A stretch of DNA of 62,699 nucleotides from an uncultured Candidatus Saccharibacteria bacterium (GTDB lineage: Bacteria; Patescibacteriota; Minisyncoccia; Phycocordibacterales; DATGWK01), in NCBI GenBank assembly GCA_964456405.1, contig CAYVZB010000004.1, forward strand, positions 1 to 62,699, in the 5' to 3' direction. Position numbers and translations under genes: made by a program. The notes below the pieces were generated by a model, which was given only the letters and a program-made list of their open reading frames with translations, was not told the DNA's origin and searched no databases. Below, piece by piece: positions 1 through 62,699 of this stretch (positions are counted from its first letter, which is position 1; each line of letters begins with the position of its first letter).

Positions 1-789
1 ATTTTTTCGCAAGCATTTTTTGGACTGCTTCAAACAGTGTCGGAGAAATAATTGGTTCAAAGCTTCCGTCGTACCATTCGCCTTTGTGGTGCGTAAAACC
101 GAGATATACACGGCTCGTGAGCATTTTAGCGACGGAAGCTTTGGCAGGTGGCGTTCCTTTCGTGGTTACGCCGTGTTCCACCAAAAATTCAGCGAGGGTT
201 CCGAGGGTATGCGTCCCTTTGGCGTACTCTTCAAACGCTTTTACCACGATGCGTGATTTAGTTGGGTGCGGTTCAATATTCCTCGTTTTCGGATTATTCA
301 CATAGCCAAAGGGAGCGCGCACCAACCACTCGCCTCGGCGGACTTTTTGGCGGATACCGCGATTGATATTTTCAACGAGATTATCGCTGTAATACTTGGA
401 TTGTCCGAACGCCACCTGCAACATGAATTTCCCTTGCGGAGTTGGCTCAAACCAAAATGTCGGAAAACGCAAAGAAACTATTTTGGTCGTGTCTACTGCG
501 TAAATGATGCGCCCGCCGTCAACACTATTGCGAGCAAGACGGTCAGGGTGCCACGCGAGGATGCCTACGCCGTCCATATTTTCAATGCGGGCCATCATTT
601 CATTAAAAAGTTCACGACCAGGTTTCTTTGCACTTTTCGACTCCTGAAATTCCTCAAGAATTTCAAGATTTTCTCTACGCGCATATTCGTGTAATTCAAA
701 AAGCTGTGCCTCAATGGACATTATTTGGTGGTCATCATCCTCAGTGCTTTTTCTAGCGTAGATAAAATATTTTGGTTTGATTTCTTTCA
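1..789 (-). CDS. Large serine recombinase, N-terminal 263 codons (3' end lies beyond window start)
   Basis: Absent from ORF track because there is no in-window stop. Own translation of minus strand from ATG 789-787: MKEIKPKYFIYARKSTEDDDHQIMSIEAQ..GILAWHPDRLARNSVDGGRIIY..QVAFGQSKYYSDNLVENINRGIRQKVRRGEW..PFGYVNNPKTRNIEPHP. Catalytic YAR-x-ST block, DRL-x-R block and E-helix, followed by a recombinase domain typical of the large subfamily. Confidence 0.85.
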
Positions 790-919
790 TGTCATTGGGG
801 AGAACTTTTTGAATTCACAGCTTCCGCCGTAGGCGGAAAGGGTTTTGAAAAATTTGACAGCGCGATTTTGGCTTCTGCAAAATCGCTCCGACTTTCTGAT
901 TCCGACAACTTCTCTTTGG

Positions 920-1224: not shown

Positions 1225-1323
1225 GTACAAAAAATTTGATATATTATAAAAGTCTAAAATGACAATGATTTAAAAAAATCTGCCTAAACTTTGCAAATGC
1301 GAAGCATGGCACAATAAGAAATT

Positions 1324-1481
1324 CCCGACCAAGATAGCAACCTCCTCATCAGGAGACGCTCTTGGTCGGGTCGTAGTCGTCGAAAGACGCTATGGGCAGT
1401 TCGAAAGAGCTGTCGTTCTCTCTGGTGGGGAGATTTTTGTTACAAAAATTTTCTCGCTAGAAACTAAACCCGACCAAGACA
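1324..1481 (+). promoter_or_regulatory. Structured 5' leader with mutually exclusive pairings (riboswitch/attenuator-like) upstream of the femAB-like gene
   Basis: The 11-mer CCCGACCAAGA occurs at 1324-1334 and again at 1469-1479 (2 nt before the ATG). Its perfect complement TCTTGGTCGGG lies at 1360-1370. Two GAAA-tetraloop hairpins lie between them (CGTC-GAAA-GACG at 1378-1389; CAGTTC-GAAA-GAGCTG at 1397-1412). Confidence 0.5.
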
Positions 1482-2510
1482 ATGAATAATTTTAAAATCC
1501 GAGAAATCGGAAATGGTGAAAATTTTGATCCTAGTATTTTTTGCGAAAATGTCCCGTTTACACAAGCAAGTTTTTATGGAGATTGGCAAAAAAATTTAGG
1601 CAGAACAGTAAAAAGATTCTTAATATCTAGCGATAAAGAAATTGTCGCTTATTTTCAAATAATTAAATATCCTCTTTTGCTAGGCAAAAGTTATTTCTAT
1701 ATACCTTATGGACCGGTTACAAAAGATTCTTCTGATGATTTTTTTTCCTACCTTAAACAAGAACTAAAAAGAATTTCTAAAATCGAAAATATTGTCTTTG
1801 TTCGTCTTGATTTCACACCAAAAATTTCAAATGATACTTTATTAAAATTTTTTACTAAAGCACCATTTTATACCTATCATTCGGCATATTTTCAACCTCG
1901 GGCTGAGTGGTTTCTTGGTTTGAAAAAAACAGAAAACGAAATACTCATGGAAATGCACGAAAAAACTCGTTACTCAATAAGATTAGCCGATAAAAAAGAA
2001 ATAGTTGCAGAAATTATTACCGACGATTTTGAAAAATATTTTGAGGTTTTTTATGAACTGATGACTGGAACAGCTGAACGAAATGGATTTAAACTCCACA
2101 AAAAGGATTATTACAAAAATATATTTCAAAATCTTTCTAGAACAAACTCTTATTTATCAATAGCAAAGTATGGTGAAAAGATTTTAGCAATTGATATGAT
2201 TATCGTTTTTGGAAAAATTGCAAACTATGTTTTTGGTGGTTCAAGTAATGAAGAAAGAAATCGTATGCCAACTTATTCGGCTCAGTGGAAAGCAATTTGT
2301 TATGCTAAACAACTTAACTGTGATTATTATAATTTTGGTGGTATAGCCACAGGAAATAAGATATATAAAGGTTGGGATGGTCTAACAATTTTTAAAAAGA
2401 AATTTGGTGGTGAAGAAATAACACATTCTGATTTTTTTGATTTAGTAACAAATCGAATCATATATTATATTTATAATTTTAGAAAATATCTAAAAAAAAT
2501 TATTCCATAA
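1482..2510 (+). CDS. FemAB-family peptidoglycan cross-bridge aminoacyltransferase (FemX/Lif/Zif-like)
   Basis: 342 aa. Family-like blocks: FTQASFYGDWQK, YIPYGPV, HEKTRYSIRLADKK, ERNGFKLHKKDYY, YVFGGSSNE..MPTYSAQW, GLTIFKKKFGG. About 30% GC by spot count. Confidence 0.8.
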   Translation: MNNFKIREIGNGENFDPSIFCENVPFTQASFYGDWQKNLGRTVKRFLISSDKEIVAYFQIIKYPLLLGKSYFYIPYGPVTKDSSDDFFSYLKQELKRISKIENIVFVRLDFTPKISNDTLLKFFTKAPFYTYHSAYFQPRAEWFLGLKKTENEILMEMHEKTRYSIRLADKKEIVAEIITDDFEKYFEVFYELMTGTAERNGFKLHKKDYYKNIFQNLSRTNSYLSIAKYGEKILAIDMIIVFGKIANYVFGGSSNEERNRMPTYSAQWKAICYAKQLNCDYYNFGGIATGNKIYKGWDGLTIFKKKFGGEEITHSDFFDLVTNRIIYYIYNFRKYLKKIIP

Positions 2511-2512
2511 AA

Positions 2513-3133
2513 ATGATCAAAATTGGATACACAATAATTATTTTTCTTTTAATTTCTTTAATTGTGGAAATCTTTTTCCTATCTGAAAATAAGCGAGAAA
2601 ATATATCTGACAAGCCAGCAATTAAGAAAGATATAGATTTTATAGCCCCAATAGATAATCCTCTAGTTAGAATTACAAAAAAATCTTTTGGTATTTTTGT
2701 GTCACCCCAAAATTCACCCATTACGCCAGAAAAATTTACTGGATATCATACGGGGGTTGATTTTGAAACTTTTCCAGAGGAACAAAATATAGATGTCCCA
2801 ATTGTGGCGGTTTGTACTGGTAAAATTCTAGAAAAAAGACAAGCAAATGGTTATGGTGGAATGGTAGTACAATCATGTTTTTTGGAAAATAATCCAATTA
2901 CTATTATTTATGGTCATATAAAATTATCAAGTATAAAAATATTACAAGGTGAAATTTTAACATCGGGTAATTTTTTGGGGGTTCTCGGTAATGGTTACAG
3001 CACAGAAACTGATGGCGAGAGAAAACACTTGCACCTTGGTATTCATAAAGGCAAAAATATTGATGTTCGTGGTTATGTGCAAATAGAAAATGATTTAAAT
3101 AATTGGATTAATATATCAACTTATTTAAAATAA
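2513..3133 (+). CDS. Membrane-anchored/secreted M23 (LytM/lysostaphin-type) zinc endopeptidase
   Basis: 206 aa. N-terminal hydrophobic anchor, HTGVDF (HxxxD) and HLHLGIH (HxH) zinc motifs. ATG is 2 nt after the femAB-like stop. Confidence 0.85.
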   Translation: MIKIGYTIIIFLLISLIVEIFFLSENKRENISDKPAIKKDIDFIAPIDNPLVRITKKSFGIFVSPQNSPITPEKFTGYHTGVDFETFPEEQNIDVPIVAVCTGKILEKRQANGYGGMVVQSCFLENNPITIIYGHIKLSSIKILQGEILTSGNFLGVLGNGYSTETDGERKHLHLGIHKGKNIDVRGYVQIENDLNNWINISTYLK

Positions 3134-3142
3134 TTGCTATTA

Positions 3143-3447
3143 TTCCGCCAGTCCGTTAAAATTTTAGTCAGAAAATAAAAAGTGTCATTCCCCCCAACCC
3201 CCAGCCACTTTTTTATTTTCTGTCCGAATTTCTGAAGCCCCGCCACCAGCCCGAATCCTTGAGGGCAGAACACCAGAAACAAAATTTTCTTTTCCATTTA
3301 AGAGATTCTTTTTCCGCGCGCCAAATCGGAAAATGTAAAGAAAAGTTTGTTTCTGGTGTCCGCCGAGTCCGCGAGGCGGGTGGCGGGGCGTTTAGTCCTT
3401 CATTTTCTTTTGGAAATAAGTTCGAGCAAATGCTATAATAACACCAC
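3143..3447. repeat. IR-R, 305-bp arm of a perfect inverted repeat
   Basis: Exact reverse complement of 920-1224. Confidence 0.95.
3410..3439 (+). promoter_or_regulatory. Outward-facing promoter copy in IR-R (would fire antisense into the trxB-like 3' end)
   Basis: TTGGAA (3410-3415), N18, TATAAT (3434-3439), preceded by TG. Confidence 0.4.
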
Positions 3448-62137: not shown

Positions 62138-62699
62138 ATGGCTGAAGACAAAAAGAAAAAAGGAAGTACATACGATGCCTCACAGATTTCTGTTCTCGAA
62201 GGTCTCGAGCCTGTGCGCAAGCGTCCCGGAATGTACATTGGTACAACTGGTCCAGACGGTTTCCATCATTTGGTTACAGAAATCTTCGACAACTCTCGTG
62301 ATGAAGCGATGGGTGGTTTTGCTAATGATATTGAGATCGCTTTTCTTCCAAATAACCGTGTTCGTGTTGTAGACAACGGCCGTGGTATTCCGGTTGATAT
62401 CCATAAACAAACAAAAGTTTCAGCTCTCGAAACAATCATGACCACTCTGCATGCCGGAGGTAAATTTGGCGGTGAGGGTTACAAAGTTTCCGGAGGTCTT
62501 CATGGTGTCGGTGCGTCTGTTGTGAATGCTCTTTCTGTTTTTGTAAAAGTAACAGTTCACAAGGACGGTGGCATATATATGCAGGAGTATAGTCGTGGCA
62601 AGCGAAAGGCGGCAGTAAAGAAAATTGGTTCAACAAAGAATAACGGTACGGTCGTTATGTTTGAGCCCGACGAAGAAATCTTTGGTAAGCAAGCGTTTG
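62138..62699 (+). CDS. gyrB: DNA gyrase subunit B, N-terminal 187 codons (runs off window end)
   Basis: Not in ORF track (no stop). Own translation: [98 protein letters not shown]. Confidence 0.95.

Follow-up and report, generated by a model that had tools for sequence, protein, structure and literature searches.

A two-state switch built on the LOOT RNA motif is the probable function of the putative 5′ leader (1262-1484) that precedes a FemAB-like/M23 peptidase operon in an uncultured Candidatus Saccharibacteria bacterium. Coordinates refer to the window, the whole stretch of 62,699 nucleotides that was analysed (Table 1). An 11-nt strand of the leader, a′, can pair with a, its partner within hairpin P2, or with a2, a copy of a that lies directly before the start codon. 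The a:a′, a′:a2 and apex:anti-apex pairings are maintained across the LOOT family, the first two by compensatory change; the alternative folds are near in predicted energy and the spacing to the start codon is fixed. A sequence-only reading of this DNA had proposed that a′ pairs with either copy and that pairing with the downstream one would block access to the initiation region, and this core idea is backed by family co-variation and near-equal energies.

In the proposed ON state a′ would pair with a and close P2, leaving the initiation region single-stranded and translation possible. In the OFF state the a′:a2 helix would lie over positions −13 to −3; the mRNA has no Shine-Dalgarno sequence, and 30S binding would be blocked. 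A second layer would arise from competition of the P2 apex for 1415-1443, a segment with three predicted alternatives: a weak hairpin resembling a terminator, with a U-run; pairing with the apex; or pairing with the spacer (P5). The switch might be triggered by folding kinetics or the age of the transcript, by a protein, or by the P3 GAAA loop docking, in a Mg2+-dependent way, on the receptor-like loop of P1. The cargo genes are accessory or mobile and unrelated to one another, which favours a general input over a metabolite or a tRNA.

Table 1. Features of the LOOT leader and the genes that follow it.
Feature	Position	Strand	Basis or remark
Putative -10 box, TAAAAT	1255-1260	+	part of the 5′ motif region 1255-1272
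Conserved 5′ motif, ACAATGATTTA	1262-1272	+	ACAAYTGAATA-like
LOOT RNA core, hairpins P1-P4	1281-1414	+	cmscan RF03000
P1 hairpin, internal loop CCUAAA / CAUGG	1281-1311	+	Rfam alignment
a, 5′ arm of P2 outer stem	1324-1334	+	a:a′ duplex −19.8 kcal/mol
P2 apex, inner CUCCU/AGGAG hairpin, complementary to 1415-1443	1335-1359	+	fold
a′, 3′ arm of P2, switching strand, only partner open to both a and a2	1360-1370	+	
P3, GAAA loop	1372-1394	+	Rfam alignment and fold
P4, GAAA loop	1395-1414	+	Rfam alignment and fold
Anti-apex segment	1415-1443	+	holds terminator-like hairpin 1417-1433, then TTTTTGTTAC from 1434
P5, alternative hairpin of anti-apex with spacer	1421-1461	+	predicted in MFE
a2, copy of a	1469-1479	+	predicted a′ pairing would mask −13 to −3
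FemAB-like gene, 342 aa, cargo	1482-2510	+	Pfam FemAB, E 3.3e-30
M23 peptidase gene, 206 aa, second cassette gene	2513-3133	+	Pfam Peptidase_M23, E 9.6e-11

The LOOT core

The segment 1281-1414 is a full-length member of LOOT (Rfam RF03000), matching model positions 1-121 of 121 with a cmscan score of 64.7 bits against a gathering score of 46.4 (E 1.1e-11); a scan of the whole window returns the identical match. The Rfam search that the sequence-only reading had recommended thus revealed a family that its author missed, and a novel type of leader is ruled out since the element is already catalogued. Weak matches to miRNA models at 978-1130 are noise arising from a long hairpin. The Rfam alignment and an independent minimum free energy (MFE) fold agree on four consecutive hairpins, an internal loop in P1 and GNRA-capped P3 and P4. 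Folding of 1275-1500 (MFE −82.9 kcal/mol, z-score −7.2) reproduces the earlier description of an upstream hairpin with an inner CUCCU/AGGAG stem followed by two GAAA hairpins, at 1372-1394 and 1395-1414. In terms of the family, a:a′ is the outer stem of P2 and the GAAA hairpins are P3 and P4; a2 falls beyond the Rfam model, which ends at P4.

Compensatory changes among relatives back the helices. P1 and P3 carry compensatory changes relative to the orthologous leader L011, and the arms of P2 differ at nearly every locus yet remain paired. P1 displays the motif CCUAA(A/C)...(C/U)AUGG in 67 of 72 loci, here as CCUAAA...CAUGG. The canonical 11-nt GAAA tetraloop receptor is CCUAAG_UAUGG (PMC11381326), which the P1 internal loop looks like, a resemblance of sequence only. 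At least 40 of 72 loci have a TAnAAT-like box and then an ACAAYTGAATA-like sequence 4-10 nt 5′ of P1, and the leader transcript likely begins near 1262.

The LOOT motif stems from the alignments of Weinberg and Breaker (PMC5737381, PMC7779021), and its covariation has been noted (PMC7657543, PMC11701678); it receives no discussion in the main text of the 2017 paper. Rfam has carried it since 2017-2020 without a function, as an "sRNA" (type Gene; sRNA) known from metagenomes only. Among 101 relatives 27 have LOOT, as do 29 of the 151 genomes in a class sample (each count including the present genome), with 1-4 copies per genome; none of 14 control genomes has it. The element described here shares with the Rfam family the four hairpins, the P1 internal loop, the GNRA loops, the full-length match over the cut-off and the habitat of small metagenome-derived genomes. 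It differs from the Rfam entry, typed as a trans-acting sRNA with a model ending at P4, in that this locus and its relatives continue into a co-varying anti-apex/terminator-like segment, and about one third of the loci additionally carry the start-codon mask a2. With two extra sets of helices co-varying with the core, one of them over the start of the next gene, LOOT becomes a testable cis-regulatory switch.

Pairing over the start codon

The 11-mer CCCGACCAAGA occurs exactly at a and at a2 on the + strand, and its sole exact complement in the window is a′, as the sequence-only reading had stated; the 3′ end of a2 indeed lies 2 nt upstream of the ATG of a FemAB-like open reading frame. Matches to CCCGACCAAGA with one mismatch number 7 where 0.78 are expected, a count attained in 0 of 100 shuffles. 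Elsewhere in the 716-kb genome there is one extra exact copy, on contig C5 (C5:28352), away from start codons; the chance expectation for copies in the whole genome is about 0.3. The LOOT leader accounts in full for the repeats that had been flagged in the window.

The arms were compared over 70 LOOT loci, which were parsed from small genomes of relatives. In 24 of these 70 loci, a′ can form an unbroken run of 9 or more Watson-Crick pairs with a site in the 200 nt downstream, against 8 of 4702 mismatched locus pairs (0.17%) and 1 of 70 when each a′ is compared with its own upstream DNA. A run-length test tolerating G-U pairs was dropped as lenient (12.9% of the null reaches at least 9) and replaced by the Watson-Crick-only and energy tests. 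The duplex of a′ with the initiation region has a mean energy of −17.6 kcal/mol against −4.7 for the null, with 25 of 25 positive loci below the null 5th percentile; because these loci were picked by pairing, the 100% pairing within the set is circular and the test stands on the null frequency. In all 25 the a2-type site follows P4 at a distance of 38-64 nt and precedes the next open reading frame by 0-13 nt.

These pairings comprise 18 distinct arm combinations, with double-sided changes at 9 of 9 pair positions (72 of 162 cells), counted on ungapped ends; a MAFFT alignment of a′...a2 was left unused since its row ends were shifted by one column. In L021 a GGAGG-containing site is masked through G-U pairs and is not an exact copy of the arm. 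In their interior, a and a2 differ little and in mixed ways: 3 differences retain pairing by wobble and 6 abolish it, for the most part toward the end next to the apex. No further copy of a′ that could serve a as another partner was found upstream or downstream in the 70 loci. In the orthologous leader L011, which comes from a different family, a, a′ and a2 are all identical to those of the window amid the compensated P1 and P3, and the three segments co-vary in 17 other arm combinations. Loss of the 11-mers in orthologous leaders, on which that reading had staked its case, did not arise. The gene behind L011 is 78% identical to the FemAB-like gene of the window. Four DNA sequencing runs gave no informative variants within a, a′ or a2, the contigs being short and of low depth. 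About two thirds of LOOT loci are without a2, and any pairing is seen in 3 of 16 negative loci of the same spacing, so masking is an add-on and not the core function of LOOT.

A repeat in a mobile-looking cassette might also be a feature of the DNA, such as a recombination core or a target duplication left behind by the cassette or by the neighbouring serine recombinase, with no role in RNA. The LOOT-FemAB-M23 cassette has a low GC content, adjoins a serine recombinase gene and is flanked by perfect 305-bp inverted repeats. These bounding repeats lie elsewhere (920-1224 and 3143-3447), and the position of the a...a2 repeat relative to LOOT and the start codon is constant over 18 versions of its sequence, although the genes that follow are unrelated. 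Moreover, the repeat corresponds in every case to the strand complementary to a′, and the changes from a in L021, L023, L037, L049 and L054 retain G-U or Watson-Crick pairing to a′. A purely DNA-level origin is hence very improbable.

Competing folds and the second helix

The fold with P2 closed is predicted at −85.4 kcal/mol and the a′:a2 fold at −84.1, so that forcing a′:a2 costs 1.3 kcal/mol. Over the 25 loci the median gap between the folds is 2.2 kcal/mol, and a′:a2 is the MFE in 7 of them; it is also the MFE for segment 1281-1484 taken alone. These are nearest-neighbour energies, which disregard pseudoknots and tertiary contacts. P2 forms first as the RNA is made, and its local hairpin is strong (−27.0 kcal/mol); without a trigger, displacement of a by a2 may be rare.

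The same energies could describe a fixed folding pathway in place of a regulated switch. P2 would then guide early folding or termination, and the mRNA would end in an a′:a2 four-way junction that serves stability or processing (e.g., RNase III cleavage or 5′-end protection) or sets a constant low level of translation. The a′:a2 MFE of 1281-1484 and of the 7 loci agrees with such an end state, the apex:anti-apex duplex described below is of a size cut by double-strand RNases, and no consistent ligand-related set of genes follows LOOT. The small energy gap, however, is typical of bistable switches rather than of pathways that run one way, a permanent mask over genes that need expression is hard to justify, and a:a′ is itself under strong covariation as P2 of the Rfam model. 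The fixed pathway is accordingly regarded as unlikely, if the more serious of the competitors to the two-state switch.

The P2 apex is complementary to the anti-apex segment after P4 in nearly the whole family: 67 of 70 loci fall below the null 5th percentile, with a mean of −26.9 against −13.6 kcal/mol (−26.4 in the window) and a mean duplex length of 19.5 bp. The sense strands form the more stable duplex, compared with the antisense strands, in 67 of 70 loci, and G-U makes up 18% of the pairs; the complementarity is specific to the RNA strand. On geometric grounds the full duplex should be incompatible with a closed P2. The anti-apex segment overlaps a terminator-like hairpin of 7 bp followed by TTTTTGTTAC, which alone is weak (−6.8 kcal/mol), and a U-rich stretch after P4 is present in almost all loci. 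The alternative hairpin P5 is predicted at about −20.2 kcal/mol for 1419-1462, with partial family support (10 of 25 loci below the null 5th percentile).

A terminator-like hairpin and T-run after P4, recurring as a U-rich segment in nearly every locus, would also suit a free-standing sRNA that ends at the U-run around 1434-1438, in keeping with the Rfam class. Such an sRNA, or its a′ strand once P2 opens, would hit a2 in trans on the mRNA of its own downstream gene, whether separately transcribed or made by read-through, and locus-specific arms would prevent cross-talk among the 1-4 copies of a genome. Against this stand the weakness of the terminator hairpin and the location of the target, always on the same strand and 38-64 nt downstream, which suits an intramolecular device. 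Furthermore, for the LOOT copy of this genome that has no a2, a genome-wide search found no arm-matching site close to a start codon, and the placement of the start codon 50-69 nt past P4 in 38 of 66 loci is leader-like. Action in trans is thus improbable, slightly more so than the fixed pathway.

Comparison with known regulatory systems

Several known leaders resemble the proposed switch in part. Translational riboswitch platforms of the TPP thiM and SAM-II types likewise have one strand that alternates between a sensor helix and the ribosome-binding region; in contrast to these, the LOOT leader has no coherent regulon and no riboswitch family match, and the site masked is a locus-specific copy of a helix arm and not a Shine-Dalgarno sequence. 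Trp-leader attenuators (1:2/2:3/3:4) share the overlapping, mutually exclusive helices, predicted here as the apex hairpin, apex:anti-apex and the terminator-like hairpin with its U-run, whereas in the present leader no leader peptide was found and the terminator hairpin is weak. In hok-type mRNAs, which belong to type I toxin-antitoxin systems, the start region is first hidden and later exposed by fold-back elements that act over a long range. The likeness is that long-range alternative pairings gate the translation of mobile-element cargo, possibly by transcript age; unlike hok, LOOT has no antisense RNA gene, no toxin and no relation in sequence or family, and sok (RF01794) is unmatched.

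T-box leaders (RF00230) also precede genes for proteins that use aminoacyl-tRNA. FemAB-type transferases use aminoacyl-tRNA, and the sequence-only reading had considered tRNA sensing; a leader sensing charged or uncharged tRNA in the manner of a T-box, or a cell-wall metabolite, would match FemAB chemistry. The gene context is all that speaks for this. Neither T-box nor any riboswitch family matches 700-1700 on either strand at E≤10, Stem I with a specifier and the T-box sequence are lacking, and the variable arms hold no conserved specifier-like or NCCA-binding element. The same leader design, moreover, stands before genes for methylases and nucleases as well as for immunity and membrane proteins. 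Sensing of tRNA or of a cell-wall compound is the least credible of the alternatives and can practically be set aside.

Cargo genes and genomic context

The genes downstream of LOOT encode 26 proteins from 20 unrelated Pfam families, including DNA methylase (4), HNH (3), FemAB (2) and Imm_superinfect (2), besides a glycosyltransferase and membrane proteins. The aptamer of a metabolite riboswitch is tied to a coherent gene set, which these genes do not form, and the riboswitch option of the sequence-only reading is unlikely given their diversity. Its statement that the genome mostly lacks Shine-Dalgarno sequences holds up in a crude test, with SD-like 4-mers upstream of 9% of 423 long open reading frames against 10% in a control stretch. 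A simple pattern search did not find the 3′ end of the 16S rRNA.

Taken together with the co-varying helices, this cargo suggests a wider reading, which is tentative and somewhat less secure than that of the single leader. LOOT may be not an sRNA but a portable bistable leader with its own promoter, carried with mobile-element cargo in ultra-small bacteria. Its private, hypervariable arm would be copied before the start codon, and one refolding event in response to a general cue would couple the pseudoknot/terminator decision to masking. If true, this would be the first function for an orphan family and a gene-control device fitting organisms without Shine-Dalgarno-led initiation. It suggests how such bacteria might gate acquired genes for restriction-modification, nuclease, immunity and cell-wall functions, and its value would lie in a family-level rule and not in a single locus.

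One contig assembled from DNA reads has a loose end at 1224 that is the reverse complement of 3113-3142. It was rejected as evidence of inversion because the contig begins inside the inverted repeat, and the loose end may be the junction of the other repeat in reference orientation. No RNA run was found to contain region 1150-2150; its DNA is present in wastewater and activated-sludge metagenomes.

Identity and distribution of the leader

The leader upstream of the FemAB-like gene is a member of LOOT (Rfam RF03000), a known family of bacterial RNAs with four hairpins, P1 to P4. The covariance-model scan suggested in an earlier sequence-only reading, run with Rfam 15 on positions 700-1700, matched LOOT over the whole length of the model, scoring 64.7 bits where the gathering score is 46.4 (E 1.1e-11), and a scan of the whole window agrees. 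The minimum free energy (MFE) fold of 1275-1500 consists of five hairpins (-82.9 kcal/mol, z-score -7.2). They include the hairpin with the inner CUCCU/AGGAG stem and the two GAAA-capped hairpins described in that reading, which correspond to LOOT P2 and to P3 and P4, respectively. The 11-mer a and its complement a′ form the outer stem of P2. Sequence search also reproduced the exact pair of 11-mers, their single complement and the 2-nt gap to the ATG. This ATG opens a 342-aa ORF with a Pfam FemAB match (E 3e-30), and an M23 peptidase gene follows. With at most one mismatch, the 11-mer has seven matches in the window against 0.78 expected, a number reached in 0 of 100 shuffles; elsewhere in the 716-kb assembly one further exact copy lies within contig C5, away from start codons.

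Features of the leader and its surroundings
Feature	Position	Basis	Remark
Large serine recombinase, N-terminal 263 aa (Resolvase + Recombinase domains)	2-790		- strand; cut by contig start
Putative -10 box TAAAAT	1255-1260	family motif search	
ACAAYTGAATA-like motif ACAATGATTTA	1262-1272	family motif search	
LOOT	1281-1414	Rfam 15 scan	+ strand
a, 11-mer CCCGACCAAGA	1324-1334	exact	5′ arm of P2
Apex, inner part of P2	1335-1359		
a′, complement of CCCGACCAAGA	1360-1370	exact	3′ arm of P2; sole exact complement within the window
Anti-apex	1415-1443		directly after P4
Terminator-like hairpin	1417-1433		followed by TTTTTGTTAC
P5, predicted anti-apex:spacer hairpin	1421-1461		
a2, second copy of CCCGACCAAGA	1469-1479	exact	ends 2 nt before ATG at 1482

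Among relatives from the same order, 27 of 101 carry LOOT, and in a class-wide sample it occurs in 29 of 151 genomes; the source genome is counted in each figure. None of 14 control genomes yielded it. From the relatives and the class sample 72 loci were gathered, and P2 could be parsed in 70. The source genome carries a second LOOT (78.6 bits) on the minus strand of another contig (C2:76178-76292; locus L001 1501-1615), 58 nt upstream of a 207-aa membrane or secreted-looking ORF and without an a2 copy. Locus L037 (G139:C11, from another genome) has tandem LOOTs at 232-350 and 1501-1624, about 1.2 kb apart on the same strand and each preceding its own ORF; an a2 mask is present only at the second, whose ORF is DNA methylase-like. 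The Rfam papers picture LOOT as a metagenome-based family and list two added covarying pairs, and the CaCoFold paper reports an extreme number of cross-covariations in it. The accessible literature gives no function for LOOT, and the main text of the 2017 discovery paper is silent on it; the functional reading developed here is absent from that literature.

Conservation of a2 before start codons

By sequence comparison, the third copy a2 is a conserved, co-varying element. At least nine contiguous Watson-Crick pairs link a′ to a site within the next 200 nt in 24 of 70 loci, against 8 of 4702 (0.17%) when a′ was compared with the downstream DNA of unrelated loci and 1 of 70 with the locus's own upstream DNA. 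Sites with at least eight contiguous pairs at the standard position were counted as positive (n = 25). All of them start 38-64 nt past P4, begin at the P2 base and end 0-13 nt (mostly 2-5) ahead of an ORF start codon. Duplexes between a′ and the 25-nt stretch that ends at the start codon have a mean energy of -17.6 kcal/mol versus -4.7 for mismatched pairs; 25/25 are under the null's 5th percentile. These loci hold 18 distinct a′/a2 combinations, with two-sided changes at all nine a′:a2 pair positions (72 of 162 cells). Of the differences between a2 and a within the helix, three still allow wobble pairs and six, for the most part at the apex-proximal end, disrupt pairing. Locus L021 masks something other than a copy of a, namely a GGAGG-containing stretch joined to a′ via G-U pairs. 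A second copy of a′ was looked for near LOOT loci and none was found, so a and a2 compete for one partner. The sequence-only reading had named loss of the three 11-mers in orthologous leaders as evidence against a switch. In the orthologous leader L011 from another family, whose FemAB-like gene is 78% identical, a, a′ and a2 are identical to those here and P1 and P3 differ by compensatory changes, so that objection does not arise. That the repeat is instead a DNA-level feature of a mobile cassette is very improbable, since 18 sequence versions, ahead of unrelated genes, all keep it in the same place.

Predicted competing folds and translation initiation

Two folds of similar energy are predicted. 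For 1262-1500 the structure with P2 closed has -85.4 kcal/mol and the best fold with a′:a2 enforced -84.1 kcal/mol; in the latter, a′ and a2 would close a four-way junction enclosing P3, P4 and P5, leaving a unpaired. Enforcing a′:a2 costs a median of 2.2 kcal/mol (range 0-8.9) in the 25 positive loci, and in seven of them, including this one when the RNA ends at the start codon, it is the MFE fold.

Sequence complementarity points to a second alternative helix common to almost all LOOT loci, between the P2 apex and the anti-apex segment (-26.4 kcal/mol here). Own-locus duplexes in the 70 loci have a mean energy of -26.9 kcal/mol versus -13.6 for mismatched loci and a mean length of 19.5 pairs (18% G-U); 67 are under the null's 5th percentile and 52 under its 1st. 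The sense strand forms the more stable duplex in 67/70 and therefore the constraint acts on this RNA strand. Full apex:anti-apex pairing and a closed P2 would be mutually exclusive on geometric grounds, since a loop of about 25 nt held almost entirely in a 20-bp duplex could not be closed by the adjacent P2 stem. The anti-apex can also pair with the spacer to form P5 (-20.2 kcal/mol), a pairing that the family supports in part, with 10 of 25 loci under the null's 5th percentile.

The position of LOOT points to a cis leader. Just ahead of P1, at least 40 of 72 loci have a -10-like box and an ACAAYTGAATA-like motif, and for this reason the transcript likely starts upstream of a. The distance from P4 to the next start codon on the same strand is 50-69 nt in 38 of 66 loci. 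Termination of LOOT as a small RNA acting in trans on its own downstream mRNA would make use of the terminator-like hairpin; it is unlikely, since that hairpin alone is weak (-6.8 kcal/mol) and the cis spacing is fixed. In line with the earlier proposal that the genome mostly lacks Shine-Dalgarno sequences, a crude test gave no enrichment: similar 4-mers precede 9% of 423 long ORFs versus 10% in a control stretch, and the sequence ahead of the ORFs is rich in A/U and poor in G. Initiation should therefore be sensitive to an 11-bp helix at -13 to -3.

The co-variation of a2, the similar fold energies, the apex:anti-apex helix and the cis-leader position together favor, with moderate confidence, a two-state leader. 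With P2 closed, a′ would be held by a, leaving a2 free and allowing translation; with a′ paired to a2, the start site would be covered. An unregulated pathway in which the same helices form in a fixed sequence is a lesser possibility, as the two folds are nearly equal in energy.

Downstream genes and the input of the proposed switch

The genes behind a2-bearing leaders encode DNA methylases (4), HNH nucleases (3), FemAB (2) and superinfection-immunity proteins (2), as well as a glycosyltransferase, staphylococcal-type and Mrr-type nucleases and membrane or zinc-ribbon proteins. This diversity argues against tRNA or metabolite sensing, and the scan of 700-1700 gave no T-box or riboswitch match. 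The switch architecture of the sequence-only reading, an alternative pairing of a′ over the start region, is supported at the family level. Its suggestion of a tRNA- or riboswitch-type sensor is not; sensing of this kind is scarcely credible.

Masking of the start codon appears to be an optional module on the LOOT core, because a2 is missing from about two-thirds of the loci, the initiation regions of a2-less loci pair with a′ no more than the null (3/16), and the P2 arm of the a2-less copy in the source genome matches no site near any start codon genome-wide. The core itself probably acts through the competition between apex and anti-apex. An internal P1 motif, CCUAAA...CAUGG here and CCUAAC...UAUGG in one-third of loci, is found in 67 of 72. 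It resembles the 11-nt GAAA-tetraloop receptor CCUAAG_UAUGG (PMC11381326), and P3 ends in GAAA; by analogy, P3 might dock on P1, which would clamp the P2 base.

Inverted repeats and a candidate mobile cassette

Positions 920-1224 recur inverted at 3143-3447 (305 bp, 100% identical), and identity stops at both ends. What they enclose is exactly the putative LOOT promoter, LOOT itself and the FemAB-like and M23 genes, and the enclosed genes have 22-33% GC versus about 45-50% outside. The FemAB-like transferase gene is directly followed by that for a secreted or membrane-anchored M23 peptidase (together 1482-3133), an arrangement reminiscent of pairs of a bacteriolysin and its immunity factor, for example lysostaphin/Lif and zoocin A/Zif. 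The serine recombinase gene lies 129 nt outside the left repeat, divergent from the cassette; its full-length relatives have 507-556 aa. Repeat homologues (70-76% identity) were found in 16 of 100 relatives; a search of seven other members of the genus gave none. In one relative (G036) they stand to either side of the orthologous LOOT-FemAB cassette, and in another (G081) a copy neighbours a serine recombinase gene that is 78% identical to the one here. From its sequence context the LOOT-FemAB-M23 unit looks like a candidate mobile or invertible cassette.

The repeat contains a long, near-perfect hairpin (978-1130, 153 nt; MFE -76.6 kcal/mol, z-score -7.0), which is therefore present twice; against Rfam it gave miRNA-model matches at noise level only. 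Positions 62666-62676 of the window and 22-32 of contig C5 have the same sequence context, so the end of the window contig and the start of C5 probably abut or overlap.
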